A stretch of 48,041 nt of DNA, from the IMG/VR virus record IMGVR_UViG_2721755720_000004, one strand, 5' to 3'. The position numbers and the translations under genes are program-made. The notes beneath the pieces are model-generated. The model was not told the DNA's origin. It saw nothing but the letters and a program-made list of their open reading frames with translations, and made no database searches. Origin of the DNA: a virus (taxonomy: Duplodnaviria > Heunggongvirae > Uroviricota > Caudoviricetes). Shown here in pieces: positions 8,596 through 48,041 of this stretch (position 1 is the stretch's first letter; every line of letters begins with the position of its first letter).

Positions 8596-9759
8596 TCAGA
8601 ACTGATAAGTCATCCCAACAGCAACGATATTATCTGTCGCAATACCGGCTTTCTGGGTAAATTCGCTTTCATCAATCAGGTTAATTTTATAATCAACATA
8701 AGTGGACATATTTTTGTTAAAGTAATAAGTCGCACCGACATCAATATATTTAACCAGATCCTGGTCGCCATGGTTCACACCACCAACCATAACATCCTGT
8801 CCGCGGGACTGCAGATAAGCCAGAGATGGACGCAGGCCAAAATCGAACTGATACTGAGCAACCATTTCAAGGTTTTGTGCTTTATCCGCAACCCCGGTAT
8901 CACCAAAAGTGGTCATATTCTGGGTTTCGGAATAAATTGCAGCCAGATACAGATTGTTTGCATCATATTTAAGGCCAGTCCCCCACATCTCAGCATACTT
9001 ACCTTTTGCAACGCTGCCGGAATCAACGGACACTTCTTTTTCCGTCACATCCCCCGTTAAAGGATCTTTGACTTCAATAGTTTTGCTACCATTCAGGCCA
9101 TTAACCTGCTTACCTGTACGATCTGACTTAGTATACGCTGCCACAAAACCAAAACCATCAAACTCATAGCTGGCAGAGAAACCATATCCATCACCATTAG
9201 ACTTCTGGAGGTCATCTCGCTCATTTTTTCCCTGATACTGGGCTGCAAAGTTAAGACCATCCACCAGTCCGAAGAAATCTGTATTGCGGTAAGTCAGCAC
9301 TCCGGAAGTACGAGCAGTCATGAAGTTATCAGTCTGCGTCCAGCCATCGCCACCAAATTCTGGCAGAACGTCTGTATACGAACCGACATCATAAGCGATA
9401 CCATAATTACGCCCGTAATCAATGCTACCTAAATCAGCGAATTTCAAACCGGCAAATGCCAGACGGGTTTTATTGCCTGCCGTCCCTTCAGACTCGGCCT
9501 TATTACCTGAAAACTGATATTCCCAGTGACCAAAACCTGTCAGTTGATCATTGATCTGAGTCTCACCTTTAAAACCAAGACGTGCATAGGTCTTATCGCC
9601 ATCATCACCTTTATCGTCTGAGAAGTAATGGAGAGCAGTTACACGACCATAAAGATCCAGCTTATTACCATCTTTATTATAAACTTCTGCTGCCTGAGCC
9701 CCCGCAGCAAACATCACTGCCACTGCAACAGCAGAAAGTGCCACTGTCATTTTTTTCAT
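8596..9759 (-). CDS. general-diffusion porin (OmpC/NmpC/Lc-like) carried as cargo inside the tail gene cluster
   Basis: 387 aa with Sec signal peptide [23 protein letters not shown]; then [17 protein letters not shown]...HYFSD and C-terminal ...YVDYKINL...GMTYQF ending in Phe, hallmarks of enterobacterial 16-strand porins; AT-rich flanks. Confidence 0.9.
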
Positions 9760-24403: not shown

Positions 24404-24946
24404 ATGAACAGATACTCTAAACTTCAAATTCAATTACATTGGCTGACTCTCGTATTAATAGCTATAGCCTGTGCTGCAATGGAACTTCGAGGTTTGTTTC
24501 CTAAAGGGTCTTCCTCCTATTTGCTTATGAGAGAAACACATTACAATGCTGGTATATTTATTCTTCTACTGATGATAATAAGAGTAATTATCAATAATAA
24601 ATATATAACACCAGCTATTACGCCGCCCCCACCTGCATGGCAAATGATATCAGCCAAATTCATGCAAACCCTGTTATACATATCTTTTTTGGTGTTACCA
24701 GTATCAGGACTTGCAATCATGGTTTTTGGAGGTAAAGCATGGAGCCTTCTGGGGATTGATATTCCCACTTTCGCTAACACCGACGGAGAAGTAAAATCCG
24801 TAGCCAAAACTATTCATGAATCACTTGCAAATATTGGTTATTTATTAATCACACTCCATGCTGGCGCTGCATTAATTCATCATTATATTCAGAAGGACAA
24901 TACACTTGTCAGAATGCTCCCTGAGCACCAGCATGATAAAAAGTGA
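24404..24946 (+). CDS. cytochrome b561 family protein (CybB-like di-haem membrane protein)
   Basis: 180 aa; MNRYSKLQIQLHWLTLVLIA...MELRG and C-terminal HAGAALIHHYIQKDNTLVRMLP closely resemble E. coli CybB; four predicted transmembrane helices with conserved His; AT-rich. Confidence 0.85.
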   Translation: MNRYSKLQIQLHWLTLVLIAIACAAMELRGLFPKGSSSYLLMRETHYNAGIFILLLMIIRVIINNKYITPAITPPPPAWQMISAKFMQTLLYISFLVLPVSGLAIMVFGGKAWSLLGIDIPTFANTDGEVKSVAKTIHESLANIGYLLITLHAGAALIHHYIQKDNTLVRMLPEHQHDKK

Positions 24947-25020
24947 GGAAGAGAAGAATCATCACTCTGACAGGTATTTTATAATACCTGTCACACTCTG
25001 TACCTCAGTTTCAGTGACTA

Positions 25021-29846: not shown

Positions 29847-29849
29847 GTC

Positions 29850-29876
29850 CATAAAAAAGCCCCTCCGGAGAGGGGC
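29850..29876 (-). terminator. intrinsic terminator (minus strand) about 30 nt downstream of repeat unit 1
   Basis: Minus strand GCCCCTCTCCGGAGGGGC then TTTTTT; 7-bp GC-rich stem with 4-nt loop. Confidence 0.6.
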
Positions 29877-29907
29877 ATACTAGCTATATATCCATTTATC
29901 ATTGGCT

Positions 29908-30037
29908 GCGTGGTGCCGGGTGCCTCCCGGTGAGCTCAGTCTGGTGTCACTGAGCCCGCACATTCTCGATCCAAGTTATCGTCGGAGATAATACCTGATA
30001 CACCAGACGCCCCTCCGCACAGGGGGATTCACCACGC
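29908..30037 (-). ncRNA. candidate structured small RNA, repeat unit 1 of 4
   Basis: 130 nt; terminal 8 bp GCGTGGTG/CACCACGC pair; conserved GCCGGGTGCCTCCCGGTG and AGGGGGATTC motifs; variable centre with its own 9-bp stem (GTCTGGTGT/ACACCAGAC). Strand inferred from flanking terminator and one G-U wobble in unit 3. Confidence 0.45.
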
Positions 30038-30264
30038 GCAGAGAAGGATACTGAACACTATTTTCTCCAGGCAATATGCAATAACATGAAGTGTGAGATG
30101 ACTTACAATTATAAAAAACAGCCTACAGAATACTCCTAAATAAAGCCATATCAAAATGAGTAACACAAAAAGGAACCAGGCAAAAATTTACGAGCAGGTA
30201 TTATCCAGCAACAGTTCAGACGCCATAACTTATTGCCGATAGCTACCATCAATAATTTCTTTCA

Positions 30265-30289
30265 TAAAAAAGCCCCTCTGAAGAGGGGC
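30265..30289 (-). terminator. intrinsic terminator (minus strand) about 30 nt downstream of repeat unit 2
   Basis: Minus strand GCCCCTCTTCAGAGGGGC then TTTTTT. Confidence 0.6.
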
Positions 30290-30316
30290 TGACATACGCA
30301 TTTGCTTTCATCATCA

Positions 30317-30439
30317 ATATGGCGCCGGGTGCCTCCCGGTGCTCCATAACTGATTAATATGGAACGCGGTTTCATTCAGTTGCATTCATGAATAACACTC
30401 TAATCAGTCCGCCCCGCCGCTTAGGGGGATTCGCCATAT
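30317..30439 (-). ncRNA. candidate structured small RNA, repeat unit 2 of 4
   Basis: 123 nt; terminal stem ATATGGCG/CGCCATAT, which covaries with the other units; same conserved 5' and 3' motifs. Confidence 0.45.
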
Positions 30440-30574
30440 AAATTGAAAGTACTGAACACATCTGTCACAAACAATATGCAATTGTATGAATTGTGAGATT
30501 ATTATCAATAACACAAAATTACAGCTCTAGTACATAAACAGCAGATTAAACAAGAACAACAAAAGTATTGAATT

Positions 30575-30698
30575 GCACGGTGCCGGGTGCCTCCCGGTGA
30601 ATTCTGCAATGACCAGACAGAATCCGCAACTTGCTACTAACGCTAATGCGACCAAGCCTCAGTCATTATGCCCCTCCGCACAGGGGGATTCACCATGC
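30575..30698 (-). ncRNA. candidate structured small RNA, repeat unit 3 of 4
   Basis: 124 nt; terminal stem GCACGGTG/CACCATGC (one C-A on the plus strand, G-U on the minus strand); conserved motifs present; no canonical terminator nearby. Confidence 0.35.
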
Positions 30699-30826
30699 GC
30701 TAAAAAAATACAAAACGTCACGTCACTCTGACAATACGAAGCACCATAAAATGTGAGTTATTTATCAATTCTTAATTCTGGTTACAGGAATATTCCGAAT
30801 CAAATCTTTAAAAAAAGAAATTCAAA

Positions 30827-30931
30827 TGCATGGTGCCGGGTGCCTCCCGGTGAACAGACCGTCCGTGATACCAGTCGGCAACACAGGAAATTAATGGTAT
30901 CACCCCACCGCACAGGGGGATTCACCATGCA
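30827..30931 (-). ncRNA. candidate structured small RNA, repeat unit 4 of 4
   Basis: 105 nt; 9-bp terminal stem TGCATGGTG/CACCATGCA; internal 9-bp stem GTGATACCA/TGGTATCAC; conserved motifs present. Confidence 0.35.
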
Positions 30932-31319
30932 GGCGTTTTCTTAGCAAACTAACTGCGCGCCCGGCAACTCCCAACCACATAAAACGTGGAGTTTGTAGCA
31001 TTTATGCACATAACTCACAGGGGTTATCTTAAAAAAAGCTGACCATGCTTCCCCGGCAACGCAATAACTTTATTCCCTGAAGTGGCATCCCCCGTATTGT
31101 CGGCAGGCTCAAAAAGGAGCCAGTCATCTGAGGATGACTGGAAAAAGGAAAGATAAAAAATTATTCATCATACAACCTTCGTTGCAGGGGAGAATCCTGC
31201 GGTGCAGCAACATACAAAAACATAAGCCAACTAACAATATGCAGGCATAGCATTTTCGGATTTTGTTATATGGCACGGTAACTGAATGCTTACCTGATAT
31301 ACAGTCCGGTATAAAGTTG

Positions 31320-34234: not shown

Positions 34235-34467
34235 TCTTTTGCCTGCCCGCCATGCGTTATTTCGTAAATTTTCACACCAAGCCGTCCGCCAGGAACAGGC
34301 AGACCGCGCACAATATTAATTTCATCAAACTGCTCGTCGTCGATAAGTAGTCCTGCATGCGTCAGCGCATCCAGTGGCGCTTTCAGAATGTTGTCCAGGT
34401 CACGACGTCGCCAGTAAGTGTTCACCGTTGGCGGGTAAGGCAAAACAAATTCTATGCGTTCGGTCAT
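34231..34467 (-). CDS. rusA: RusA-like Holliday-junction resolvase, internally shortened (78 aa)
   Basis: LPYPPTVNTYWR (N-terminal RusA motif) is joined almost directly to RRDLDNILKAPLDALTHAGLLIDDEQ (C-terminal catalytic region); about 40 residues of a normal ~120-aa RusA are missing. Confidence 0.6.
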   Translation of the reverse strand: MTERIEFVLPYPPTVNTYWRRRDLDNILKAPLDALTHAGLLIDDEQFDEINIVRGLPVPGGRLGVKIYEITHGGQAKE

Positions 34468-35526
34468 TTATGCTTTCCACTTCAGAACACCCGAATTTCT
34501 CGCGTGCATTAAAAAACGAATCAGCAACAACAGCTGACTGCCGTGTTTCTCTTCAAAATCTTTTACTCCGGCATGCAGTTCGTTATGGCATTTACGGCAC
34601 AACGGAATAACAAACAAATCGTCAGCCTTTGTTCCCATCCCTCCCAGTCCATGACCAATGATGTGATGCGGATCATCTGCCTGATTGCCACACGTCATGC
34701 ATTTCTGCGTTTTTACCCAGCGCGTGTATACGGGCATCTCTTCCCGTTGTGGTTTCTGGCGCTGGAGGTACTGAGCCGGAGACTCCGGATCAACGGCGAT
34801 GCTTACTAACGTCTTTTCCTGTGGTAGGGTCTGTTGCTGGTGGGTATGAGGCGGTAGCGTAATATTTTTTGTGCGCTGTTTCAGTATGCTGGTGGAGGTC
34901 TGCGCTCCCGGAATGATGTCACTCTCACGGTATACGGAGCGGATTTTTTCCACCGGTAATCCCAGCGAACGACGCAATACAGACTCCGGAAGCGCATCAG
35001 CCACCTGATTGCAGACCGCCCACCAGGATAATTCGGCCAGCGACAGTTCCCGCTCCTGTGTGCCATTCATTGCGTGACGTATGACATCAATCATCCAGGC
35101 TGCCAGATTCTGCTGAGCAAGTTGCTCCAGTGAATCAGATGTCTGCTCCCGCAACTGGTTGTCGCAGTGCCAGCACAACACCATCGCGCCGGTACCGTAA
35201 CGGTGAATGACGGTTTCGCTGTGATGATAATCACCATGAGGCCACTGACAGGATTTCACGTGACGTAATAACCAGTCAGGCAGTGCACCAGCACCGCCAG
35301 CAGCACGGATCACCCGCTCATCGCTGAAAAATGGCAGTAATGATTTATCCTCAGCCAGCGGCTGGCGAACGACAGGAACGATCCCGGATGGCTGGCCACT
35401 CATGCTTTTCGGTTCAGGCTCCACCAGCACACGGGGATTGTGAAATACCGGCATGGATTCACGGCCCGGCTTAAGGACCACCAGCCCGAGTTCCGGTACC
35501 AGAACAGGTCGAAGTAATACCCGCAC
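34468..35526 (-). CDS. phage protein with C-terminal HNH-type Cys/His nuclease motif
   Basis: 352 aa; C-terminal CMTCGNQADDPHHIIGHGLGGMGTKADDLFVIPLCRKCHNELH; start codon uncertain. Confidence 0.55.
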   Translation of the reverse strand: MRVLLRPVLVPELGLVVLKPGRESMPVFHNPRVLVEPEPKSMSGQPSGIVPVVRQPLAEDKSLLPFFSDERVIRAAGGAGALPDWLLRHVKSCQWPHGDYHHSETVIHRYGTGAMVLCWHCDNQLREQTSDSLEQLAQQNLAAWMIDVIRHAMNGTQERELSLAELSWWAVCNQVADALPESVLRRSLGLPVEKIRSVYRESDIIPGAQTSTSILKQRTKNITLPPHTHQQQTLPQEKTLVSIAVDPESPAQYLQRQKPQREEMPVYTRWVKTQKCMTCGNQADDPHHIIGHGLGGMGTKADDLFVIPLCRKCHNELHAGVKDFEEKHGSQLLLLIRFLMHARNSGVLKWKA

Positions 35527-35971: not shown

Positions 35972-36127
35972 TTACTCCTCAGGTTCGTAGACTGTGAAAA
36001 CAGCGACCTCCGTCTGGCCGGTTCGGATTCGTACCTCGCAGAGGTCTTTCCTCGTTACCAGTGCCGTCACTATGACGGTTAAACAGATGACGATCAGGGC
36101 GATTAACGTCGCCTTTTGCTGCTTCAT
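35972..36127 (-). CDS. hok: Hok/Gef-family type I toxin
   Basis: 51 aa MKQQKATLIALIVICLTVIVTALVTRKDLCEVRIRTGQTEVAVFTVYEPEE, near-identical to the Hok/Gef/RelF family consensus; the in-frame upstream extension in the ORF track is not used. Confidence 0.85.
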   Translation of the reverse strand: MKQQKATLIALIVICLTVIVTALVTRKDLCEVRIRTGQTEVAVFTVYEPEE

Positions 36128-36372
36128 AGCCTGCTTCTCCTTGCCTTTCGGCACGTAAGAGGCTAACCTACATTTGTGAGACATAGATTGGGCCTCAGAT
36201 TAATGTTAAGCGTCTTGCAGGACGCGTTATGTTAACTGGGGCTTTTCTCTGTCTGCCTTACGGCGGCATGCCCGAGGCAGACAGCCTCAAGCACCCGCAG
36301 CAATTCTACTTAACTCTCGCTTTACAGCAAACCGTTTTTGCCCAATATGGGAATTCCCATATCGCAATGAAT

Positions 36373-36477
36373 TCAGTTCCCCAGCCGATCCATCAAAAAC
36401 ACAACCAGGCAGTAAACAATAACAACAGCAATAACAGCCAGAGCGCCTTCCATTGCCAGTGAAATATCATCCGACAT
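36373..36477 (-). CDS. small hydrophobic peptide (34 aa)
   Basis: Hand-translated MSDDISLAMEGALAVIAVVIVYCLVVFLMDRLGN, preceded by AAGGAGGG; one transmembrane helix. Confidence 0.3.
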   Translation of the reverse strand: MSDDISLAMEGALAVIAVVIVYCLVVFLMDRLGN

Positions 36478-36511
36478 ATTCCCTCCTTTGGTGTGAATCC
36501 CGGCGAACGTT

Positions 36512-36595
36512 TTACCCCCACCGACAAATAACATATACTAAAAAAGCGATAGCCATAGCAACGCCTACAATTGCAAATGCTTCAGGCCAGGTCAT
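36512..36595 (-). CDS. small hydrophobic peptide (27 aa)
   Basis: Hand-translated MTWPEAFAIVGVAMAIAFLVYVICRWG, preceded by GGAGGA; its ATG overlaps the stop of the upstream gene. Confidence 0.3.
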   Translation of the reverse strand: MTWPEAFAIVGVAMAIAFLVYVICRWG

Positions 36596-37092
36596 CGTAA
36601 AATATCCTCCACACCAACCAGTCCGTTCTGCTTCAGATATTCCATCGCTTTATCAGGTAGCTTGCTTGATTTATTGACGCTTTTTAGCGAACTGGCTAAT
36701 CGCTTAACCAACATGGTTAATTCGTTAATCTGGTTACCAGGTGTTGGCGGCGTGACTGTCTGTTCCCGTTCTTCATCAGGTACTACCGGTTCCACTACCA
36801 ACTGACTGGCATATTTGTTAATGGTAACGATAAGCTCTTGCTCAGACTCATCCAGACAATCACCGATACCTCGCCTGTCACCGTCAAAATCGGCAAAGTC
36901 GGTACGAATCCTGACTACCTTCATAATTGCTGACAGCACCTCATCTGGAATTACCTGAGAGTTACCAGTCTTACACATGGCAATCTCCACGATTTCAACC
37001 ATATCTCCTGCTGGAATTTTACAATGCTGACCAATATGCCTCTGCTGCCTGGCATATTCGAGGATGTGCTCCAGTTTAGTACGATTAATCAT
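36592..37092 (-). CDS. hypothetical protein (nin-region)
   Basis: 166-aa ORF with consistent operon context; no motif recognised. Confidence 0.5.
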   Translation of the reverse strand: MINRTKLEHILEYARQQRHIGQHCKIPAGDMVEIVEIAMCKTGNSQVIPDEVLSAIMKVVRIRTDFADFDGDRRGIGDCLDESEQELIVTINKYASQLVVEPVVPDEEREQTVTPPTPGNQINELTMLVKRLASSLKSVNKSSKLPDKAMEYLKQNGLVGVEDILR

Positions 37093-37095
37093 GAT

Positions 37096-37443
37096 TTATC
37101 TCCCTGACTCCTGGCTGTTAAACCATGTTTCAAATTCCGGCACTACCGGCACTGGCGGTGTGGCGTATAGCTTACGGGTCTGAACAGCTGCCCCCTGGAG
37201 TTTCTCTTCCTCAACAAATCCTTCGTAAGCGCATTCTCCGCAATCTTCCCATTCCCCCCATTCATCATATTCCGCATCCCACAGGCGATACTGATATGCC
37301 ACCGGTTCTGCTTCCAGCGATGCCAGTGCAATTTTGAATAGCTCGCCCTCTACCCTAGCCATCTCTGAATTGGGGTGACATTTCGCAACCGCTATTTTTA
37401 ATTTGGCTTCTTTGATTAATTGCTCTCTGGTTAATTCAGCCAT
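37096..37443 (-). CDS. hypothetical protein (nin-region)
   Basis: 115-aa ORF, acidic Trp-rich centre; no motif recognised. Confidence 0.5.
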   Translation of the reverse strand: MAELTREQLIKEAKLKIAVAKCHPNSEMARVEGELFKIALASLEAEPVAYQYRLWDAEYDEWGEWEDCGECAYEGFVEEEKLQGAAVQTRKLYATPPVPVVPEFETWFNSQESGR

Positions 37444-37535
37444 TTTTCATTACCGCCATTTCTGGTGGCCTCCTGATGTTCTGAGGGTGCAGAAATCCCT
37501 CCGGTTAAGGATTTTATTTCCGATAATAATGTTAA

Positions 37536-37892
37536 TTATTCGGGGCTAAATTTTGTCGCCCTGCGTATCCGCGCTTTCGCGTTACGCTCAATCTGAATTA
37601 GCTTTTCTATATTTTTTCGCCTTTCCTGTTCCTCCTGGCGCAATAGCCTTACATCATCTGCCAGTCTGGTTTCTCTTTTCGCCACTGAGAGCATCCAGTC
37701 AAATGGCTCCACAACCGCACCGCAAATTTTGCATCGGACCTGGCGCTCTTTTTCGTCAACCCGGACAGAGGCGTGATGGCAGTATGGTCTTTCCGATGGC
37801 TCATAAAGAAAATTAACCTGATTACGTGGGTCATCCTCTTTTACCGGAAATAAAACAATATTGCTTAACTCATCTTCTGGTTTTATTTCCAT
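37536..37892 (-). CDS. hypothetical protein with Cys/His cluster
   Basis: Start set at MEIKPEDE, preceded by AAAGGAGAGGAG; CHH...CKIC motif. Confidence 0.45.
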   Translation of the reverse strand: MEIKPEDELSNIVLFPVKEDDPRNQVNFLYEPSERPYCHHASVRVDEKERQVRCKICGAVVEPFDWMLSVAKRETRLADDVRLLRQEEQERRKNIEKLIQIERNAKARIRRATKFSPE

Positions 37893-37949
37893 GCTCCTCT
37901 CCTTTGATGCGAATGCCAGCGACAATTGAAGCCTGATAGCTAATTTCAC

Positions 37950-38387
37950 TCACAGTACCGCCTCCTGAAAATTACCCTGATAGAAAGCCAGTACACGCTG
38001 CATAACTTCACTCTTCCGGCACTCACAGCAAATTATGTTTTGGTGCCTGTCATAACGACGTATTTCTCCGTCAGGTAATGACCAGATAAGGTCCGGATCA
38101 ACTGCAACCGATTTCTTCATCTTTGCCCTCGATAGTTTTTTGCGGGCGTTTTGCCAGTCCTTACGAGCCTGTTCAGAGGGAAATAACCCGTAGCCAGAGT
38201 TGTATACATCACCACTGGCAACCAGCTCTCTTGCGAGAACGCTCATCAGATATCTTGTCGCACCTGTCTTGGCTTCCAGTTGCCGTAACGTCTCGCGCCC
38301 ACTCTGGCGTACTAGCTCAACAACCTGCCCTTTAATTTTTTCCCGCTCTTCCTGTGTAAATACTTTTGCCATAAGCGCCTCCGGCAA
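37950..38387 (-). CDS. hypothetical protein
   Basis: 145-aa ORF tightly packed with neighbours; no motif recognised. Confidence 0.5.
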   Translation of the reverse strand: MPEALMAKVFTQEEREKIKGQVVELVRQSGRETLRQLEAKTGATRYLMSVLARELVASGDVYNSGYGLFPSEQARKDWQNARKKLSRAKMKKSVAVDPDLIWSLPDGEIRRYDRHQNIICCECRKSEVMQRVLAFYQGNFQEAVL

Positions 38388-39176
38388 TCACTTTTCCGAC
38401 ACAATACGACTGGAGGAATCGACAATCTGTCGAACAATATCCCGGTGCTTGTTCAGCTCCCGCAACGCGGCGCAGACACGCTCCCACTTCTGGACATGAC
38501 TTTTCGCCCGACGCAGTTCGCGGTTTGCCATATGCAGCGATGGTAAAACCAGGTCATCCGTTTGCGTTTCGGTGAACGATGGCAACGACTGCACAATGTC
38601 CGCCACAGTTTCTGTTTTAATTTCTTCCTGTGTTGCAGCTTCCCGGACTGGTAACGCAACACCTGCTGACTGAGGAAATGCCTTACCATCATTTTCCGTT
38701 ACCGGCGCGGCTTTCGGCTCTACTGGTAAATTATCGCCCGGCATGCAGTAACGAAATTTACCGTTCTGATTAACGCGTGCCAACCGCCCCGTTGCGGTTA
38801 CTACCGCCAGCGTGGAAGCAACCTTGCGAGTGCTAACACCGAACTTACCCGCCAGTTCCTCACACGTTTTAGCCCCCTCCTGACCGATAAACTCAATCAT
38901 CATGTCTGCGGTAACTTTTTGTTCGACCTCCCCGGTCAGCACATCCGGTGCTTCAGATTTTGCTGGCTGCTCTTCGGTTACCCGGGATTCACCTTCGCCA
39001 GCCAGAAACCAGGTGTGACCAGTTTTATCAACGACGCCATTTCTTTTGAGTTCCCACAGCTCGTTGAGAACCTCTTCACGACTGATATCAAGTCGCGCAG
39101 CCAGTTCTACCGATGTGGCTTTTCCCATTGCTTTCAGTGCGTCAAAAACGGTTTCCATTAAAATTTCCTCCGACAA
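38388..39176 (-). CDS. hypothetical protein with two winged-helix-like segments
   Basis: 262 aa; repeated ...ELA.KLG/KFGVS... helix-turn-helix-like segments; lies downstream of the DnaC-like gene. Confidence 0.5.
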
Positions 39177-39186
39177 AAATTACATC

Positions 39187-39924
39187 TCAGTTCCTGTGCT
39201 GGCTGACGTTCGGACGCCAGCTCTCCCAGTCAAAAGTCACCCAGCGACCACCGTTCATGGACATGCGGTCCATTGCCCTTTCGCCTACAAGCGTATTCAT
39301 TGCGACATGATTCAGGTTCGTCAGCATCCCTACACTGCGTAATGATGACGTTCTGCGGTCAACAATCTGATTAAGCGTGACTTGCTCATTGCGCGTATCC
39401 CGCTGCATGCCAATTTCATCCAGGACCAGCAAATCCACCTCGCAAAGCTCCTGTAAAAATTTTTCACCTGATTTGCCGTTGTCGTAACTGTCGTGCGACA
39501 CACTCATGACATCAGACACAGTGATGATAATTACGCTGCGCCCCTTCTCCATCAGCCGATTGCCTATCGCCGCCGGGTGGTTTTTCCCTGTGCCAGGTCG
39601 GCCACTGAAAACAAAATTCGTACAGCCGCCTTCCAGCTCTGCCGCAATGGATTTCGCCTGACTCAGGGCATGGCGCTGACCATCGTTCTGCACCCGGTAG
39701 TTACCGAACGTACACTTCCAGTGAAGCGGCTGGATACCGGAGCGGTTAATGATTTTTTCAACCCGCGTCTGATGATTCAGGCGATTAACCTCCTCGCTGC
39801 GCTTACGCCCTTCAGCAAGCTGCCATTCCCGCCACTCCTCCACCGTACGGTACGGTGGAACCTCCCCCTGTGGTGCAATTCTGCGAATACGTTCAAGAAC
39901 CCCAACTGCCGCAATGTTTTTCAT
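39187..39924 (-). CDS. DnaC-like replication helicase loader (IstB-type AAA+ ATPase)
   Basis: 245 aa; Walker A GRPGTGKNH, Walker B LLVLDEIG; overall resembles E. coli DnaC. Confidence 0.85.
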   Translation of the reverse strand: MKNIAAVGVLERIRRIAPQGEVPPYRTVEEWREWQLAEGRKRSEEVNRLNHQTRVEKIINRSGIQPLHWKCTFGNYRVQNDGQRHALSQAKSIAAELEGGCTNFVFSGRPGTGKNHPAAIGNRLMEKGRSVIIITVSDVMSVSHDSYDNGKSGEKFLQELCEVDLLVLDEIGMQRDTRNEQVTLNQIVDRRTSSLRSVGMLTNLNHVAMNTLVGERAMDRMSMNGGRWVTFDWESWRPNVSQHRN

Positions 39925-39930
39925 GACACG

Positions 39931-40893
39931 TCACCCCCTGAATCCCGGCGGTATTTCAGTGTCCGGTTCAGAAATGTGATTCACGCAACGCTGCGCGGGC
40001 GAACGCCCCAGGCGGATAACCAGTTCATCCCATTTTTCCCGGAGTTTTGCCGGACTCATGATGTTTTTTACCCAGAACGAATCCCGCTGGACACGCCCAA
40101 ACATTTCACAAATTTGTCTGTGAGTTCTGCCATCCAGCATCCGCATTGTGCGCACATCATTGGCCCATGCTGTCCAGTTGGGTTCTTTCGGTCTCGTGAT
40201 CTCGCCATCATCGCTGGCCGCCTGCTCGTAAAGACTCACGATTCGTCCCCAGATCCACTGTGCGCACGCCAAATCTTCCTGACTTCCCCACTGGCGTTTT
40301 TTCGCACTGAACACAACCGCGTCAGGGTGTCGGGTTAAAAAATCCTGTTCAGCCGTCTGCGGGTCCGGTTGCGAAACGTCCGGACAAGAAGATCTTTTAT
40401 CTGACGGATCAGGTTTTAATACTGACGGATCGGGGTCAATCATCGCCCCCCTAATCGGCAGTTTTTTATCAACAGTTGATCCATCAAAATTTGACGGGTC
40501 AACAGTTGAGGGGTCAATATTTGACGGGTCAACTGTTAACGGGTCATTTTTTGCCGGGCTAATTTTTCTTTTCGGTTTATATGCCTCACGGGCCGCAGCT
40601 GCAGCTGCTTCGAGTTTTTCCACATTAAGCCGATAGATATTGCTTACGTTACGCCCACCGACCTTACGCTCTTCCTTCGTCAGCCAGCCCTCTTTCGCCA
40701 GTTCTGCAATAGCAGATTTCACGGTAGATTCACTTCTTGCACCGATCTGACGCCGGATAGTTTCAATGGCAGGCCATGACACGCCCTCGTCATTGCTGTA
40801 GTCTGCAAGACGGGCCATAACTGCCACCCTGGATAAGATCATGCCGGTGAAGGCGCACCCTTCCCAGACAAGACCATGAAGCTTGCTGCTCAT
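39931..40893 (-). CDS. replication initiator (lambda O-like N-terminal DNA-binding domain), origin iterons embedded
   Basis: N-terminal winged-helix region; the central coding region holds the iteron repeats; start set at MSSKLHGL after a GGGGG ribosome-binding site. Confidence 0.65.
   Translation of the reverse strand: MSSKLHGLVWEGCAFTGMILSRVAVMARLADYSNDEGVSWPAIETIRRQIGARSESTVKSAIAELAKEGWLTKEERKVGGRNVSNIYRLNVEKLEAAAAAAREAYKPKRKISPAKNDPLTVDPSNIDPSTVDPSNFDGSTVDKKLPIRGAMIDPDPSVLKPDPSDKRSSCPDVSQPDPQTAEQDFLTRHPDAVVFSAKKRQWGSQEDLACAQWIWGRIVSLYEQAASDDGEITRPKEPNWTAWANDVRTMRMLDGRTHRQICEMFGRVQRDSFWVKNIMSPAKLREKWDELVIRLGRSPAQRCVNHISEPDTEIPPGFRG
40465..40550. repeat. origin iterons (about four direct repeats of TTGACGGGTCAAC-like units) with adjacent A/T tract
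   Basis: atcaacagttgatccatcaaaatttgacgggtcaacagttgaggggtcaatatttgacgggtcaactgttaacgggtca, followed by ttttttgccggg; lies inside the O-like gene. Confidence 0.6.
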
Positions 40894-40915
40894 AAAACCC
40901 CCGAACACCGTGCTT

Positions 40916-41341
40916 TTAGTGCATCACCACAGCATTCCCTGCCGGGCCGCCGCGATTCATCTGGTCATACAAAACAACCGCTGACGCAACAAAATCATCG
41001 ACATCCTTCACCAGTCGATCCCTCCGTTCGACGATCTCACGGTAATATTCAGAGCTGTGACTGCGCATACGGGCCACCAGCAAAGGCGGCATCGCCTTTT
41101 CGATCGCCGGTAACAACGCCTGAATTTTTTCAACAGCATCAGGGGTGTCCTTCTCTACCCAGCGGAAAATTTTCTGGGTATTGCGAGCCAGGGCTTCCGG
41201 ATGGCTGTCGTCATACAGTTCAGGAAACGTCATACCCAACTCAAAATAAGCCTGGGTTATTGCAGCTACTGGAACTTTTTCGCCATCAGGACGCGCCCAG
41301 GCATTCATCGCCATACAGATGTGTTCATGCTTGATTTTCAT
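40916..41341 (-). CDS. hypothetical protein in the cII position (YdaT-like)
   Basis: 141-aa ORF directly downstream of the Cro-like gene and upstream of the replication genes; family call is positional. Confidence 0.45.
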   Translation of the reverse strand: MKIKHEHICMAMNAWARPDGEKVPVAAITQAYFELGMTFPELYDDSHPEALARNTQKIFRWVEKDTPDAVEKIQALLPAIEKAMPPLLVARMRSHSSEYYREIVERRDRLVKDVDDFVASAVVLYDQMNRGGPAGNAVVMH

Positions 41342-41606
41342 GAATCAAGCTCCTAGAAAGTGGTTGTGTTAACGTTTTGGTATCTTCCAGCTCGGGCCAA
41401 ATATTCATCCAATCAAAAGGCCTTAGTTGCTGACGTGTAACTTCACCATTACTGGCTCGCTCAATAAGGACACATAACGATGCCCCTAACACTTGACCTT
41501 TACTCAATGCCTTTCTTAGATAACCGATGCTGGTACCGCACTCGCATGCAAACATACGCTGTTCATCTGACGAAAGAGAATTGAGAAATATTCTTAATTC
41601 TTCCAT
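41325..41606 (-). CDS. Cro-like helix-turn-helix regulator (YdaS-like)
   Basis: 93 aa; helix-turn-helix (CGTSIGYLRKALSKGQV) then GEVTRQQLRPFDW...WPEL; divergent from the repressor gene across the operator region. Confidence 0.6.
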   Translation of the reverse strand: MEELRIFLNSLSSDEQRMFACECGTSIGYLRKALSKGQVLGASLCVLIERASNGEVTRQQLRPFDWMNIWPELEDTKTLTQPLSRSLIHENQA

Positions 41607-41609
41607 AGC

Positions 41610-41706
41610 TACTCCTTAGTAAACACAGCAAAGAATACCCGTAGGTAAACAAAAGTCAATACCCACAGGTTGTTTACCTTGCAGTAATCGCATCTATTAT
41701 TTACCT
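41610..41706. promoter_or_regulatory. rightward operator/promoter region between Cro-like and repressor genes
   Basis: Related half-palindromes TACCCGTAGGTA, TACCCACAGGTT, TACCTATGG, plus the inverted pair GGTAAACA...TGTTTACC. Confidence 0.5.
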
Positions 41707-42126
41707 ATGGACAAATATGAATTTAGACGACAGCAACTCATCAAAATTCGTGATGAGAAATGCGATGGTAAAGCGGTTAACGTGGCCAGAAAGATCGGGC
41801 GCGAGCCTTCTTATGTATCAAGAATGTTGTACCCAGAGGGGAAAAAGGGAAAAAAACGGATCGCTGATGATATGGTGGAGATTATCGAAGAGTCCTTTGG
41901 GTTACCCCGGGGATGGATGGATGGTATCGTTTCATCATCAACGAACACAGCCTCCAGTTATGAAACAAGGGTTCTAACGCCACGACAACGTATTTTTTTA
42001 GATCTCTTAGACGAACTGCCAGAAAGTGAAGCGGATAACTTATTAAAAACTCTTGAAGAGAAAAAACAGTATTACAATATGATCTACGAAGAAATCCGTA
42101 AAAAGAAAGCGCAAAACGCATCATAG
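41707..42126 (+). CDS. prophage repressor-like helix-turn-helix protein
   Basis: 139 aa; helix-turn-helix near the N-terminus (AVNVARKIGREPSYVSRM); divergently transcribed from the Cro-like gene. Confidence 0.6.
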   Translation: MDKYEFRRQQLIKIRDEKCDGKAVNVARKIGREPSYVSRMLYPEGKKGKKRIADDMVEIIEESFGLPRGWMDGIVSSSTNTASSYETRVLTPRQRIFLDLLDELPESEADNLLKTLEEKKQYYNMIYEEIRKKKAQNAS

Positions 42127-42167
42127 CTCACCAAACAACCAGTCACCAGTTAAGACACCGCAAAAAA

Positions 42168-42212
42168 AAGTTACCCATGGGTATTTACTTTTTAAATACC
42201 TATGGGTATCCT
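42168..42212. promoter_or_regulatory. leftward operator-like palindromes downstream of the repressor gene
   Basis: TACCCATGGGTA (perfect 12-bp palindrome) and TACCTATGGGTA, same consensus as the 41610-41706 sites; lie just upstream of the plus-strand early-left genes. Confidence 0.45.
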
Positions 42213-42394
42213 TCTTTTCATACCAACCCACCCCGCCCCACAGAACGCAGGGCAATACTTCGAGTTACCCGGCAGTGGTCAGGGGTTAAGTAGCCAGCCT
42301 GAGGCGTAAGAACATGACGGCAGGGTTCAACATTAATAACTATGCAGCAGGTTTTTGTTCCGCTCCCCCGGCGTTAAGGGGAAATGAGGTCAAC

Positions 42395-42547
42395 ATGGAT
42401 ACGCTCAATCTTGGTAACAACGAATCTCTGGTATGCGGTGTGTTCCCTAACCAGGACGGCACCTTCACCGCGATGACGTATACCAAAAGTAAAACGTTTA
42501 AAACCGCAGCTGGCGCGCATCGCTGGTTAGCAAGAAACTCTAACTAA
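42395..42547 (+). CDS. small protein, YdaF/DUF1391-like
   Basis: Start set at MDTLNLGNNESLVCGVFPNQDGTFTAMTYTKSKTFK..., preceded by GAGG; resembles a small Rac-prophage protein family. Confidence 0.45.
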   Translation: MDTLNLGNNESLVCGVFPNQDGTFTAMTYTKSKTFKTAAGAHRWLARNSN

Positions 42548-42660
42548 TGAAGTCTGGTAGTTAAGGAATCCTCCACGGGGAGAACTGGTGCACACGCGCC
42601 GGACACAAGCAAGCATCCGGCATGCTCTTTAACAATCTGGATATCCATAACAGTAACAAT

Positions 42661-42876
42661 CTACAGATTGCCGTTCAGTTTTCTGGCCAACTTCTCAATA
42701 GATGGAGGCGATACATAATCCGGATTTTTATTCATAATAAACTGATTTTCACAGTATAGGCACCTGCTTTTATGAAAAAACTCATATTCTCTAACCGGGA
42801 ATGGTTGAAGTATCGATACTATATTTTGTCCAAAACATTTTGGACAAAGATGCATGATTATGCTGCCGCCGTTCAC
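42661..42876 (-). CDS. small zinc-ribbon protein (hypothetical)
   Basis: Two CxxC pairs (CPKC...CLYC); AAGGAGGT upstream of a GTG start; AT-rich; competes with an overlapping plus-strand ORF. Confidence 0.35.
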   Translation of the reverse strand: MNGGSIIMHLCPKCFGQNIVSILQPFPVREYEFFHKSRCLYCENQFIMNKNPDYVSPPSIEKLARKLNGNL

Positions 42877-43699
42877 GGTTACCTCCTTCGAGTACACAAA
42901 AGTTCCCGACTCAAGTTGGTTAAGGATATAACCTTCCGTCTGAGCCTCAAAGTTTTCAAATTCTGCAATTTTAGCTTTGAGAGAAGCATTTATTTCTTAA
43001 TAAGTGCCCACCAGCTCAACGAGAGACACGCATTCGCGCTGAATAGATGCAAGCTTTGAGTTCAGTTCACCAATAGCCGCATTTACTTCAGCTTGAGTTT
43101 TTGCCTCGTTCATTAGTTTTGCAATCTGAGCGGTTTCACGAATAGCCGTCATTGCTGCCGTTAATTCAGCGATCACATTCAATACTCTTATTGTTGTTGT
43201 GGATATCCAGATTAACAAGATCCTTGTTGTTGGGGAATAACAGGTCCACCTCGCCTGACGTGGTTAAAAGCAGGCACACAACACGAAAGCGCTCGGCGAA
43301 GTTCGTCTCTCTGTACTTTGTCGTTAAATTTAATTCGACCGTGCGCTTCCGGTTGTGGCAATCCGCGAAATGGCGCGGCGGTAAGTATGGCGGGGTTATT
43401 CCTTCCCCCATTGAGGACACCGGGTTGTCAGGTTGACCATACGCTTAAGTGACACCCCAGCCACAACAACCTCTGTTATCACTTTTCTGGTGATTCGGCG
43501 GAAATGGATATCCGCCCTTTTTAAAGTGAATTTTGTGATGCGGTGAATGCGGCTATGCGCACGCGGAACAGTTAAAACAAGCGGTCTTTTACTTCCGTAA
43601 CAGACATCAACTAACAATCCGGCGTTAATTGTTAACTGGTTAACGTCATCTGGAGGCACCAGGCACCGCATCACAAAATTCATTGTTGAGGACGCGATA

Positions 43700-43888
43700 A
43701 TGGAAACGTTATTACCAAACGTTAATACGTCTGAAGGTTGTTTTGAAATTGGTGTCAGTATCAGTAACCCTGCATTTACTGAAGATGCCATTAATAAGAG
43801 AAAACACGAACGGGAGTTATTAAATCAAATATGCATTGTTTCAATGCTGGCCCGTTTACGTCTGATGCAAAAAGGATACTGGCAATGA
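43700..43888 (+). CDS. hypothetical small protein (early-left operon)
   Basis: 62 aa, GAGG ribosome-binding site 8 nt upstream; stop overlaps the start of the next ORF. Confidence 0.35.
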   Translation: METLLPNVNTSEGCFEIGVSISNPAFTEDAINKRKHERELLNQICIVSMLARLRLMQKGYWQ

Positions 43889-44076
43889 ATACAGCATTCG
43901 CACTCGTTCTGACAGTTTTTCTTAATACCGGCGAACCACTTGATCTTATTGTTGATATACGTGACTCAATGGAAGAATGCATGGCTGCCGCAGATGAACA
44001 GAAAATTCCCGGTAACTGTTATCCGGTAGATAAAGTTATTCGCATGGATAATAACGAAGTCCCGGCAGGGCTTTAA
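43885..44076 (+). CDS. hypothetical small protein with hydrophobic N-terminus
   Basis: Start set at MNTAFALVLTVFLNTG (signal-like), preceded by AAAGGA. Confidence 0.35.
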   Translation: MNTAFALVLTVFLNTGEPLDLIVDIRDSMEECMAAADEQKIPGNCYPVDKVIRMDNNEVPAGL

Positions 44077-44166
44077 ACCAGCACCGTAATAAATATCCGG
44101 TTTCATTTTTATATGCCAGCAATGGCAGGGACTTGTTCACCCTAAAAATGGTTATGAGGTTTATCA

Positions 44167-46623
44167 ATGAGCGCTGATAAAGAAGAAATTGCACTATATT
44201 ACGAAGCCAAAAATGACAAAGTCAGAAAACGTCTTGGGATTAAAGGCGGTTTTTACTGGCGCACAGCAAAAAAATTATCGGTTGCAATATCACGCGGTGT
44301 TGTCGCAATGGACGATGCTGGATTTGACGAAGAGGATTTTAAAAAACCTGTTCGCGTCCATTTACCCGTTGTGAATGACCTTCCTCCGGAAGGCGTGTTT
44401 GATACCGAATTCTGCAACCGATACGAAAAAGGCGGGGAAGATGGTATCACAATGGTACTTATCGCGCCCTCACCTATCGCGCCCTCATCCTCTGTTCAGG
44501 ACAAACCAGCCAGCACTGACAATACCAACGTCAACAGCGAAGACATGACTGAGATTGAGGAGAATATGCTCCTGCCGGTTTCAGGTCAGATTCTGCCTGT
44601 TCAATGGCTGGCACAGCACGGCAGCGAAAAACCGATCACACACGTTTCGCGGGGCGAACTGCGTGCATTACATAACGCACAGGATGAAAAACTTCCCGCC
44701 GTTACCGCGCTGGCCATCTCAAATAAAGCTGCGCAACTCGAACCGCTGGAAATTCGCGATCTCCACAAACTGGTTCGTGACACTGACAAGGTTTTCCCTA
44801 ATCCTGGTAATTCAGACCTGGGGCTGATGACTGCTTTTTTCGAAGCATACCTGGGCGCTGACTACACCGATCGCGGTCTGCTGACAAAAGAGTGGATGAA
44901 AGGAAATCGTGTTTCACGCATCACCCGCACGACTTCCGGTGCTAATGCCGGTGGAGGGAACAAAACCGATCGCAATCCGAATTTAGTACACACCCTCGAC
45001 ACACTGGATGTGGAGATTGCAGCAGCCACACTTCCGATGGATTTTAATATTTATGAAATTCCGGGCAGCATTTATCGTCGCGCAAAAGAAGTCGTCCTGA
45101 AAAAAGAAAGTCCGTTCAAAGAATGGTCCGCAGAACTTCGTGCAACCCCGGGTATTCTGGACTATTCCCGCGCCGCTATTTTTGCACTTATCCGAAGCGC
45201 ACACCCTGAATTTTATCACTACCCGGGACGCCTTCAGGGGTATATCAACGCCTATTTGACGGAAACTGATCACGAGAACCCCAGCAAGGAAACTCTCACA
45301 GCTGCCCGGCATACGCCGGAAAAAGATATCCTGGAAGAAATTAACCGCGAGGTGGTTACTGAGCGTGAAACAGAAAAAGAAAAACCACAACCATCTGACG
45401 CAATGGCAGGTGAACAGGCAACAACTGAAAGAATGGAACCGGATACAACTGAACATTGCCAGGACGCGCAGTCGCTGGATGCTCAGTCGCAGGTGAGTTC
45501 CGCTAACCAATTAAAAGTCACCGCTGACGAAGTAAACAAAACTATGCAGGCAGCCAGTATCAGCCAGCCTGATGCCGATAAGTTGCTTGCTGTATCGCGT
45601 GGTGAATTTGTTGAAGGGATTAGCGATCCGAATGATCCTAAATGGGTGAAGGGGATTGAAACCCGCGATTCTGTGAACCAGAACCAGCAAGAAACGGAAC
45701 AGAACGACCAGAAAGCGGAACAAAACAGCCCAAATACGCAACAAAACGAGCCAGAAACGAAACAACCTGAACCAGTAGTGCAACAAGAACCGGAAAAGAT
45801 CTGCACCGCCTGCGGTCAGAGCGGTGGCGGCAACTGCCCTGATTGTGGTGCGGTGATGGGCGACGCAACATACCAGGAAACATTCGATGACAAGAACCAG
45901 GTTGAAGTTCAGGAAGACGATTCGGAGAAAATGGAAGGCGCTGAACATCCACGCAAGGAGAATGCTGGCAGCGCTCAGGACCACGCCAGCGATAGTGAAA
46001 CTGACGAGACGGCAGATCCCTTAATTACGGTGAACGGTCATCACGTTATCACATCCACCAGCAGGACGTGTGACCATCTAATGATCGACCTTGAAACCAT
46101 GGGAAAAAATCCTGATGCCCCGATTATCTCAATAGGTGCAATATTTTTCGATCCGCAAACCGGAGATATGGGACCGGAATTTAGTAAGACTGTCGATCTG
46201 GAAACTGCTGGCGGAGTCATTGATCGGGACACCATTAAATGGTGGCTTAAGCAATCACGCGAAGCGCAATCTGCCATTATGACCGATGAAATCCCGTTAG
46301 ATGATGCACTGTTACAATTGCGGGAATTTATCGACGAAAACTCCGGTGAATTTTTTGTTCAGGTCTGGGGTAACGGTGCAACTTTCGACAACGTGATTTT
46401 ACGCCGTTCATATGAACGGCAGGGGATCCCCTGCCCGTGGCGTTATACCAATGATCGCGATGTAAGAACGATGGTTGCTCTGGGACTGGTGATGGATTTC
46501 GACGCAAGAACGACTATTCCATTCGAAGGTGAACGCCATAACGCCCTGCACGATGCGCGTTACCAGGCAAAATACGTTTCAGCCATCTGGCAAAAACTGA
46601 TCCCGAGTCAGGCTGATTTTTAA
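44167..46623 (+). CDS. large recombination exonuclease, RecE-like N-terminal region fused to a C-terminal DEDDh (DnaQ-like) 3'-5' exonuclease domain
   Basis: 818 aa; C-terminal Exo I IDLETMG, Exo II GNGATFD, Exo III HNALHDARY; central acidic linker and CxxC...CxxC zinc ribbon; N-terminal two-thirds resemble prophage exodeoxyribonuclease VIII-type proteins (from memory). Confidence 0.75.
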   Translation: MSADKEEIALYYEAKNDKVRKRLGIKGGFYWRTAKKLSVAISRGVVAMDDAGFDEEDFKKPVRVHLPVVNDLPPEGVFDTEFCNRYEKGGEDGITMVLIAPSPIAPSSSVQDKPASTDNTNVNSEDMTEIEENMLLPVSGQILPVQWLAQHGSEKPITHVSRGELRALHNAQDEKLPAVTALAISNKAAQLEPLEIRDLHKLVRDTDKVFPNPGNSDLGLMTAFFEAYLGADYTDRGLLTKEWMKGNRVSRITRTTSGANAGGGNKTDRNPNLVHTLDTLDVEIAAATLPMDFNIYEIPGSIYRRAKEVVLKKESPFKEWSAELRATPGILDYSRAAIFALIRSAHPEFYHYPGRLQGYINAYLTETDHENPSKETLTAARHTPEKDILEEINREVVTERETEKEKPQPSDAMAGEQATTERMEPDTTEHCQDAQSLDAQSQVSSANQLKVTADEVNKTMQAASISQPDADKLLAVSRGEFVEGISDPNDPKWVKGIETRDSVNQNQQETEQNDQKAEQNSPNTQQNEPETKQPEPVVQQEPEKICTACGQSGGGNCPDCGAVMGDATYQETFDDKNQVEVQEDDSEKMEGAEHPRKENAGSAQDHASDSETDETADPLITVNGHHVITSTSRTCDHLMIDLETMGKNPDAPIISIGAIFFDPQTGDMGPEFSKTVDLETAGGVIDRDTIKWWLKQSREAQSAIMTDEIPLDDALLQLREFIDENSGEFFVQVWGNGATFDNVILRRSYERQGIPCPWRYTNDRDVRTMVALGLVMDFDARTTIPFEGERHNALHDARYQAKYVSAIWQKLIPSQADF

Positions 46624-46684
46624 TGTTCAACCGTCGCCAGTTGTAGTTGCTATTCTGCAACTGGCGCATTCCGGAGTGATGGCC

Positions 46685-46954
46685 ATGAGCGAACAGTACC
46701 TGATAACGCTCGACGAGTGGAAGCCTAAACGGTTCAGTCTCCCAATAACAAACTCTACCCTGGTGAAATACGGAAAACTGGGATACATCGTTCCAAGGCC
46801 ACAAAAAATCCGTGGGCGTTGGCTGATAGATCGCCGAGCAGTATTTGTGGGTCCTGGTGAAACAGGAATTGCGCCGGAAATTCATACTGACGATGATGAC
46901 GCACTGAAGGAGATTTTAACTCATGTCACCGAGGCCACGAAAAAACAGCACTGA
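46685..46954 (+). CDS. xis: excisionase-like DNA-binding protein
   Basis: Small basic protein directly upstream of and overlapping the integrase gene; GGAG ribosome-binding site 8 nt before ATG at 46685. Confidence 0.55.
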   Translation: MSEQYLITLDEWKPKRFSLPITNSTLVKYGKLGYIVPRPQKIRGRWLIDRRAVFVGPGETGIAPEIHTDDDDALKEILTHVTEATKKQH

Positions 46955-48041
46955 CATAGCATGTCTTTACGAAAAGTTTGATCGCAGAACTGGCAAGGTT
47001 TACTACCAGTATAAAAATCCAGTGACTGGTAAATTTCACGGACTCGGAACAGACAAAGGCAAGGCAGAAAAAATCGCTTCCACGGCTAATCAACGAATAG
47101 CTGCAGCAGAAGCAGAATATTTCATGCGCAAAATTGATGAAAGTCCATCAGCAACAAAACGTCGGGGTATCAGATTAAAAGCATGGGTTGATCGATATCT
47201 GAAAATACAGGACTCACGACTGAAAAATGGAGATATTGCAGCTACAACCCACAAAGAAAAGGCGCGAATGGCTGCATACCTAGTTTCCCGCCTGGGAAAT
47301 CACCCATTGAAAGACCTGGAAGTAAGAGACTTTGCATTAATACTGGATGAATGGCTGGATAAAGACATGGTCAGCACAGCGAGAGTAAATCGCGGATTAT
47401 GGGTTGATATTTATAAAGAAGCACAACATGCAGGGGAAGTTCCTCCTGGATGGAATCCTCCGGAGGCTACCCGTAAACCGATCCCTAAAGTAACCAGAGC
47501 CAGGCTCGCCCTGGAAGACTGGCAAAAAATTTACAACGCAACACCGGAAAAACACTTTATCCGTAACGCAATGCTTCTTGCGATTGTCACTGGTCAGCGC
47601 CGTGATGACATTTGCCACATGCGTTTTTCAGATGTGTGGAACGAACACTTGCATATCACCCAGGGAAAAACCGGAATGCGTCTGGCGTTACCGCTTACAC
47701 TACGCTGTGATGCCATTGGGATAACGTTAAAAGACGTTATTGATGGATGCCGAGACAGAATATTAAGTCCATATCTAATCCATAGTCGGCACCAGAAACA
47801 ACCAAAGCCGATGAGTAAAGACAACCTGAGCGACTACTTTGCCAAAGCGCGGGATCTGGCTGGAATAATTCCACCAGCAGGAAAAACACCGCCCACATTT
47901 CATGAACAACGCTCTCTATCTGAACGGCTGTACCGTGCACAGGGTATCGATACAAAAACCTTACTAGGACATAAAGTCCAGGCAACCACCGATCGCTATA
48001 ACGATACCCGAGGTCAGGAATGGGTTAAGTTGGTTATTTGA
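46923..48041 (+). CDS. int: tyrosine integrase (lambda Int family)
   Basis: 372 aa; catalytic region with R...HxxR...Y context (LAIVTGQRRDDICHMRFSDV...HEQRSLSERLY...LLGHK...TTDRYNDTRGQEW) as in lambda Int; stop at the last base of the window. Confidence 0.9.
   Translation: MSPRPRKNSTDIACLYEKFDRRTGKVYYQYKNPVTGKFHGLGTDKGKAEKIASTANQRIAAAEAEYFMRKIDESPSATKRRGIRLKAWVDRYLKIQDSRLKNGDIAATTHKEKARMAAYLVSRLGNHPLKDLEVRDFALILDEWLDKDMVSTARVNRGLWVDIYKEAQHAGEVPPGWNPPEATRKPIPKVTRARLALEDWQKIYNATPEKHFIRNAMLLAIVTGQRRDDICHMRFSDVWNEHLHITQGKTGMRLALPLTLRCDAIGITLKDVIDGCRDRILSPYLIHSRHQKQPKPMSKDNLSDYFAKARDLAGIIPPAGKTPPTFHEQRSLSERLYRAQGIDTKTLLGHKVQATTDRYNDTRGQEWVKLVI

Follow-up and report, generated by a model that had tools for sequence, protein, structure and literature searches.

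The prophage gene analysed here encodes a protein of 818 amino acids (aa) in which a RecE-type N-terminal region is joined to a predicted 3'-5' exonuclease domain of the DEDDh (DnaQ-fold) type, and no annealase gene accompanies it. The gene lies at 44167-46623 (+) of a 48,041-nucleotide stretch of DNA from a tailed virus (Caudoviricetes; IMG/VR record IMGVR_UViG_2721755720_000004), which is called the window throughout and represents a complete lambdoid prophage. With modest confidence we read the protein as a modular early-lytic phage exonuclease that degrades or trims 3' DNA ends, and not as one half of a Red/RecET-type recombinase.

Domain organization of the 818-aa protein

Pfam, NCBIfam and BLASTP matches give the protein a RecE-type N-terminal region, and Pfam a DEDDh C-terminal domain. 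The parts of the gene are:

44167-46623 (+): exonuclease gene, 818 aa (open reading frame (ORF); PGAP coding sequence (CDS) WP_046201494.1 'exonuclease'; domain matches)
44167-46026 (+): RecE-homologous region, aa 1-620 (BLASTP, blastn, NCBIfam)
44176-45261 (+): three predicted folded segments, aa 4-100, 132-250 and 275-365
44332-44748 (+): Pfam PF06630 Exonuc_VIII (RecE N-terminal family), aa 56-194 (E=9e-27)
45262-46071 (+): acidic tether, predicted disordered, aa 366-635, net charge -36 (predicted local distance difference test (pLDDT), composition)
45598-45645 (+): conserved motif RGEFxxGISDPNDPKW, aa 478-493 (alignment of homologues, RecE alignment)
45793-45840 (+): CxxC...CxxC zinc-ribbon-like motif, aa 543-558 (alignments, sequence inspection)
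46025-46026: mosaic junction, where similarity to recE ends at the start of the RecE nuclease domain (blastn, protein alignment)
46075-46590 (+): predicted DEDDh (DnaQ-fold) 3'-5' exonuclease domain of the Rv2179c/DexA family, aa 637-808

Comparison with RecE from the Rac prophage of K-12 reveals 51% identity over about 560 residues (RecE ~50-592 against aa 1-620, BLASTP), and the NCBIfam RecE equivalog NF007259 aligns aa 1-621 with positions 1-603 of its 877 at 903 bits, under the cut-off of 1269. The protein alignment diverges past '...ADPLITV', and at the DNA level the blastn high-scoring segment pair between window positions 45377-46025 and Rac (L002, 7228-6616) ends at the same junction. 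Both proteins possess PF06630, the RGEFxxGISDPNDPKW motif, an acidic linker and a zinc ribbon, and both genes occupy the early-left operon position of a Rac/Qin-type lambdoid prophage. They differ in the C-terminus. While RecE ends in a PD-(D/E)XK domain (PF12684), annotated as a 5'-3' double-stranded DNA (dsDNA) exonuclease, and its gene overlaps recT, the 818-aa protein ends in the DEDDh domain and its gene is followed by xis-int. The initial annotation, made from the DNA letters, had interpreted the gene as a multi-domain protein replacing the usual exonuclease-annealase pair; its domain identity and the missing annealase hold, but the acidic linker and the zinc ribbon, which it had listed as parts of the new arrangement, are both found in RecE and are not novel.

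The RGEFxxGISDPNDPKW motif, shared with RecE, is invariant in all N-terminal types (invariant columns R478, G479, E480, I485, S486, D487, D490, K492 and W493). The CxxC...CxxC motif is also common to RecE and the 818-aa protein, is missing from some relatives and reaches only E=0.11 against Pfam DZR. In the structure model pLDDT is below 50 across most of aa 366-635. For the three folded segments ahead of this tether no structural relative was found among solved structures, and fold searches were uninformative.

The DEDDh domain and its conservation

The C-terminal domain matches PF16473 with 221.4 bits against a gathering cut-off of 27, covering profile positions 2-177 of 177, and the precomputed Pfam domains of the protein are PF06630 and PF16473 only. 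PF12684 gives no match in the 818-aa protein at E<=1, a profile that K-12 RecE matches at 4e-28; RecE aa 600-866 gives no tblastn match anywhere in the window, and the fold matches of the protein include no PD-(D/E)XK structure. The domain adopts the RNase H-like alpha/beta fold in the model built from 70 sequences, which was used instead of the full-length AF2 model because the latter has low confidence in the exonuclease domain (shallow alignment).

All three motifs of the DnaQ family are present, and their predicted catalytic residues are D641, E643, D741, H791 and D796. Exo I is the D-x-E of 'MIDLETMG' (D641-L-E643), aligned with the Exo I residues of the T4 exonuclease DexA; Exo II is D741 in 'WGNGATFD', aligned with DexA D119; and Exo III is the H-x4-D of the 'h' subtype (H791-NALH-D796), aligned with DexA H186 and D191. 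Each of them is invariant among 63 distinct full-length alleles. The motifs picked out in the initial annotation are real, and the prediction it drew from them, a DEDDh domain of 3'-5' type instead of a PD-(D/E)XK nuclease, is supported by the profile matches.

In the same 63 alleles the ratio of nonsynonymous to synonymous substitution rates (dN/dS) of the exonuclease domain is ~0.10, indicating purifying selection, and an ORF of at least 780 aa is kept in 67 of 80 loci. The corresponding value for the N-terminal region (~0.48) is unreliable, because unrelated N-terminal types were forced into one alignment, and only the value of the exonuclease domain is used. Low dN/dS, invariant catalytic residues and the 67 full-length ORFs together argue that the domain is functional and not decaying.

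Two residues near the active site are unusual in the window allele. T761 (46447-46449), which aligns with DexA W152, is Tyr in 55 of 63 related alleles, and H795 (46549-46551) is Asp in 58 of the 63; DexA likewise has His at the position equivalent to 795. In addition, two Salmonella proteins (P0277 and P0292) are full-length alleles with a mutated Exo I motif (VALKTMG and VDLKAMG), and may represent catalytically dead copies kept as intact ORFs.

Missing annealase and exchange of cassettes

A two-component phage recombinase such as Red or RecET consists of an annealase (RecT/Red-beta, Erf, Rad52-like or Sak4-like) encoded in the same operon or phage, and a 5'-3' dsDNA exonuclease producing 3' tails. 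Neither was found here, fold and motifs of the nuclease pointing to the 3'-5' type. As the initial annotation had stated, no annealase gene lies near the exonuclease gene. PGAP annotates none in the window, the ORFs scanned against Pfam, PADLOC and PHROG gave none either, and no ORF of at least 140 aa exists in any frame of 42126-44167. As tblastn queries, RecT, Red-beta, Erf, lambda Exo, Gam, Abc2 and the nuclease domain of RecE had no match in the window, in phage HannyBb or in any of 80 domain-bearing IMG/VR loci.

The survey of homologue neighbourhoods proposed in the initial annotation gave the same picture, with no annealase beside the DEDDh versions examined. In six relatives (the isolated phage HannyBb, UTI89, a Salmonella and a Citrobacter prophage and two metagenomic contigs) the exonuclease gene is directly followed by xis-int or int and has no RecT beside it; upstream of it are dicB or kilR and then a small ORF (DUF1482; unassigned in Salmonella). 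The Citrobacter protein P0276 combines PF06630 with PF12684, its N-terminal region being 73% identical to that of P0128, and here RecT follows. Comparing this locus with the DEDDh relatives lacking RecT, we conclude that PD-(D/E)XK together with recT acts as a single cassette, to which the DEDDh domain is the alternative, with the exchange point inside the gene at the domain boundary.

In many related prophages a further early-left gene family, starting with 'MRLTMEFKDLP...' (phrog_2151/1363), is encoded 3' of the repressor and 5' of the exonuclease gene (for example L027:3350-3997, L082:4241-4888 and L088:5540-6154). Its proteins of 200-216 aa have a conserved N-terminus and a variable C-terminus, and the window has no member. 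We considered this family as a hidden annealase and rejected it, because the PHROG families to which it belongs have no known function and none of them is an annealase family.

Distribution of the fusion and its family

The initial annotation had treated the protein as unusual, which does not agree with its distribution. By megablast, 4051 of the 5426 complete E. coli genomes searched contain DNA of the DEDDh domain, with 8109 occurrences in total and a maximum of seven in one genome; DNA of the RecE nuclease domain is found in 1729 of the same genomes, so that the DEDDh version is the majority form in E. coli. The architecture PF06630+PF16473 is already annotated by NCBI and Pfam. It is present in at least 120 homologues, all among the matches listed, under the NCBI names 'exonuclease', '3'-5' exoribonuclease' and 'exodeoxyribonuclease VIII'. 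This architecture is common, and neither rare nor unusual. We found no study of the RecE-type/DEDDh fusion in the literature.

The fusion has been conserved in E. coli, Salmonella and Citrobacter although identity of the N-terminal regions falls as low as ~25-40%, and the gene is also found in isolated plaque-forming phages such as HannyBb, mEp460 and Tritos. In phage LLS the slot ahead of xis-int is taken by a stand-alone homologue with 57% identity. The domain family as a whole comprises 11,906 clusters at 50% identity, mainly stand-alone proteins of ~180-200 aa, and the domain occurs in 1603 of 50,697 phage records, the T-even dexA genes among them.

A second group of E. coli proteins has the same linker and DEDDh domain on another N-terminus, with PF27430 and PF27432 'YdfE_C'. 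The RecE-type and the YdfE-type thus share one C-terminal half, and therefore the N-terminal region is exchangeable, with at least two unrelated types. In the Qin prophage of K-12, ydfE occupies the slot of our gene, in the order ydfA(DUF1391)-dicF-dicB-ydfD(DUF1482)-X-int, which is also the order in UTI89. Intact YdfE-type proteins match the 818-aa protein in linker and DEDDh domain but differ in the N-terminus, which is of an unrelated type and has no BLASTP similarity to that of the 818-aa protein; the latter in turn lacks PF27430 and PF27432. K-12 ydfE itself is a pseudogene cut by IS2 and misses the exonuclease domain.

Genetic context in the prophage

Region 36000-48041 (12 kb compared) is 99.8% identical to an E. 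coli CI5 prophage adjoining potC. On the + strand the order is repressor, DUF1391 gene, DicF-like locus, dicB, DUF1482/ydfD gene, exonuclease gene, xis and int, so that the early-left (dicB) operon ends with the exonuclease gene, ahead of xis-int:

41707-42126 (+): DicA/cI-like repressor gene
43700-43888 (+): dicB, upstream in the same operon (Pfam DicB, E=2.4e-38; PGAP)
43885-44076 (+): ydfD-like DUF1482 gene, directly 5' of the exonuclease gene (Pfam DUF1482; PGAP)
46685-46954 (+): excisionase (xis) gene, directly 3' of the exonuclease gene (PGAP)
46923-48041 (+): integrase (int) gene, prophage end, adjoining potC in strain CI5 (ORF; PGAP)

A scan for promoters and terminators is little informative on expression because the sites were no more numerous than in shuffled sequence; it places no consensus promoter directly ahead of the exonuclease gene, a result of little weight. 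The other recombination-related genes of the prophage are those for RusA and a DUF968/HNH protein (PGAP). The RusA-family CDS (~34242-34478, -) abuts the DUF968/HNH gene and codes for 78 aa only, which we take to be below the size of RusA, so that it is possibly truncated.

A DicF-like small RNA (sRNA) locus at ~43470-43525 (+), 5' of dicB, aligns with K-12 dicF except for a 17-nucleotide internal deletion, and even a permissive E-value search of 42100-44200 with Rfam reported no DicF match; it may thus represent a DicF variant that is shortened or inactive. Between this locus and the DUF1391 gene, the minus strand carries a pseudogene (42661-43176) split by an internal stop into ORFs of 78 and 73 aa. 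Neither Pfam (at significant scores) nor PADLOC recognises it, and it may be a decayed cargo gene. The sRNA family STnc100 is represented by four tandem copies (29847-30960, -; 77-133 bits) between the DUF6645 gene and tRNA genes, and by a fifth, weak and sub-threshold match (43515-43732, +; 32.5 bits, E=8.7e-5) which overlaps the region 5' of dicB and the dicB start.

Elsewhere in the prophage we noted sok antitoxin RNA with hokD (36122-36296, -, and ~35983-36138, -), a second Hok/Gef gene near the tail-fibre genes (~2401-2511, -), and an ompC-like porin gene within the tail cluster (8596-9759, -), phage-borne cargo with a GC content of 0.436 against ~0.55 in its flanks. A gene annotated by PGAP as cytochrome b (~24415-24957, +) separates the terminase from the lysis genes and runs opposite to its neighbours.

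Relatives with experimental data and possible functions

The closest characterised relative of the DEDDh domain is T4 DexA (PDB 8KEL/8KEN), although the two share just ~23-27% identity. DexA is a 3'-5' DNA exonuclease for which host-DNA scavenging and end processing in intron homing have been described (PMC12153337). At 227 aa it is a stand-alone protein from a virulent phage, has additional loops and can switch between dimer and tetramer; in our protein a 620-aa N-terminal region is attached to the domain, and Thr aligns with W152 of DexA, which is reportedly needed for activity on T4 DNA. The only E. coli homologue with experimental data is the DexA-family protein EcD or 'HREX' (HAK9828821.1; Kang et al., NAR 2025, PMC12153337). 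Expressed from a plasmid, EcD protected E. coli from T4, and it digested T4 DNA but not unmodified DNA (PMC12153337). In contrast to the fusion it is a short stand-alone protein beginning with MIDTET; prophage context and RecE fusions are not mentioned in PMC12153337. None of our representative homologues begins with MIDTET and ends with HS like EcD, the 17-mer core of its primer gave only chance matches in the genome contigs, and a P0250-seeded homologue search for EcD returned metagenomic stand-alone proteins and no E. coli protein. The founder of PF16473, Rv2179c from M. tuberculosis (PDB 4HEC), differs in being chromosomal, stand-alone and without phage context.

We propose the following for the protein. 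Its gene would be expressed in the early lytic programme, after derepression of the repressor-controlled dicF-dicB-ydfD operon, as the gene order suggests. A DEDDh domain of the DexA/Rv2179c family takes the position of the PD-(D/E)XK nuclease of RecE, joined at the RecE domain boundary. Judging from the fold and the intact pentad, this domain would remove nucleotides at free 3'-OH ends by two-metal catalysis, D641, E643, D741 and D796 binding the metal ions and H791 acting as general base. The substrate would most likely be DNA, as with T4 DexA, and the targets might be linear DNA of the host or of a rival phage, or recombination and replication intermediates handled by host enzymes. Candidate roles, by analogy, are DexA-like DNA degradation, exclusion of rival phages and trimming of 3' ends. 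The RecE-type N-terminal region may be a portable targeting, partner-binding or oligomerisation module usable with a nuclease of either polarity; its role is pure inference, because the fold searches were uninformative.

Some points speak against an early-lytic DNA exonuclease. The 3'-5' activity of this protein and of like fusions is predicted from fold and motifs, and the timing of expression, weakly, from gene order and the missing consensus promoter. The founder Rv2179c reportedly acts on RNA 3' overhangs (PMC10534295, citing Abendroth 2014), so the substrate may also be RNA. Finally, the Salmonella alleles with a mutated Exo I motif keep a full-length ORF, and nuclease activity may be dispensable in some lineages.

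It is possible, if rather unlikely, that the gene encodes an 'HREX'-type nuclease by which the prophage would provide defence or exclude other phages, digesting the incoming 5-hydroxymethylcytosine DNA of T-even phages and sparing the unmodified DNA of host and prophage. The domain shares its family with DexA and EcD, is found extremely widely among prophages of E. coli (up to seven copies per genome) and lies in one operon with dicB, a gene reportedly protective against some phages; the behaviour of EcD towards T4 and unmodified DNA would fit as well. However, the operon should be repressed in lysogens, and the scan, weak as it is, found no promoter-like site directly upstream. EcD is moreover a different, stand-alone protein, and the residues do not match: EcD-like behaviour is linked to an aromatic residue at the DexA W152 site and loss of the Asp equivalent to D90 (PMC12153337), whereas the window protein has T761 (though Tyr in most alleles) and keeps the Asp as D713, in a DexA alignment at 27% identity whose positions could be off by one or two residues. 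PADLOC, whose library predates HREX, recognised neither the exonuclease nor any of four minus-strand ORFs upstream of it. Because the allele is not EcD-like by these residues, our first choice is general degradation or trimming of DNA 3' ends during lytic growth, followed by HREX-like exclusion. Next, and somewhat more doubtful, comes an accessory to recombination or repair that would trim 3' ends or flaps of breaks and replication intermediates together with host RecA, RecFOR and RecJ, host recombination standing in for an annealase of the phage. The gene sits in the exact slot of the recombination module with the N-terminal 620 aa of RecE kept, RusA and the DUF968/HNH gene are retained in the prophage, and the 3'-5' activity of DexA contributes to homing-associated double-strand-break repair (PMC12153337). 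But removal of 3' tails destroys the substrate of RecA loading and of annealases, so that a stimulatory role is not obvious, and the recT partner is consistently absent.

We regard an exoribonuclease acting on RNA 3' ends, be it of host or phage transcripts, sRNAs or RNA-phage genomes, as improbable, despite what is reported for Rv2179c. ISG20-like DEDDh exonucleases called 'TONDO', encoded on mobile elements, do block RNA phages, but they are unrelated to the 818-aa protein. Last in rank, and hardly credible, is a non-functional chimeric remnant of prophage decay or illegitimate recombination. Many E. coli lambdoid prophages are defective, the K-12 counterpart ydfE is disrupted, and some Salmonella alleles have lost Exo I residues; yet the strong purifying selection on the exonuclease domain with its invariant catalytic residues largely refutes this explanation, and the conservation of the fusion over three genera and its presence in isolated phages speak against it as well.

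Implications

Many prophage genes labelled 'exodeoxyribonuclease VIII/RecE' have no RecT partner and would not encode RecE-type 5'-3' recombination nucleases. DEDDh-type genes should therefore not be counted as recombination (recombineering-type) modules in surveys of phage genomes. The two versions represent a natural domain swap, in which closely related RecE-type N-terminal regions are combined with nucleases of predicted opposite polarity, and recT is found only with the PD-(D/E)XK version. This swap separates the N-terminal two thirds of RecE from RecT-dependent recombination and offers a route to the function of that region. To our knowledge, no function of the N-terminal ~600 residues has become known since RecE was first dissected. 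Because the DEDDh form is present in ~75% of complete E. coli genomes, often in multiple copies and under purifying selection, its function represents a sizeable gap, and the publications on DexA and EcD point to DNA scavenging or the exclusion of rival phages as testable roles.

As a more speculative thought, which we hold to be rather doubtful, the RecE N-terminal region might be an autonomous portable module, delivering or regulating any nuclease joined to it without a link to recombination. The DEDDh version would then not be a recombination enzyme but a hitherto overlooked means of attacking rival phages or of countering defence, for instance by destroying foreign DNA that is modified or linear, as in HREX. 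If true, most 'exodeoxyribonuclease VIII' genes of enterobacterial prophages would be misassigned in both mechanism and role.

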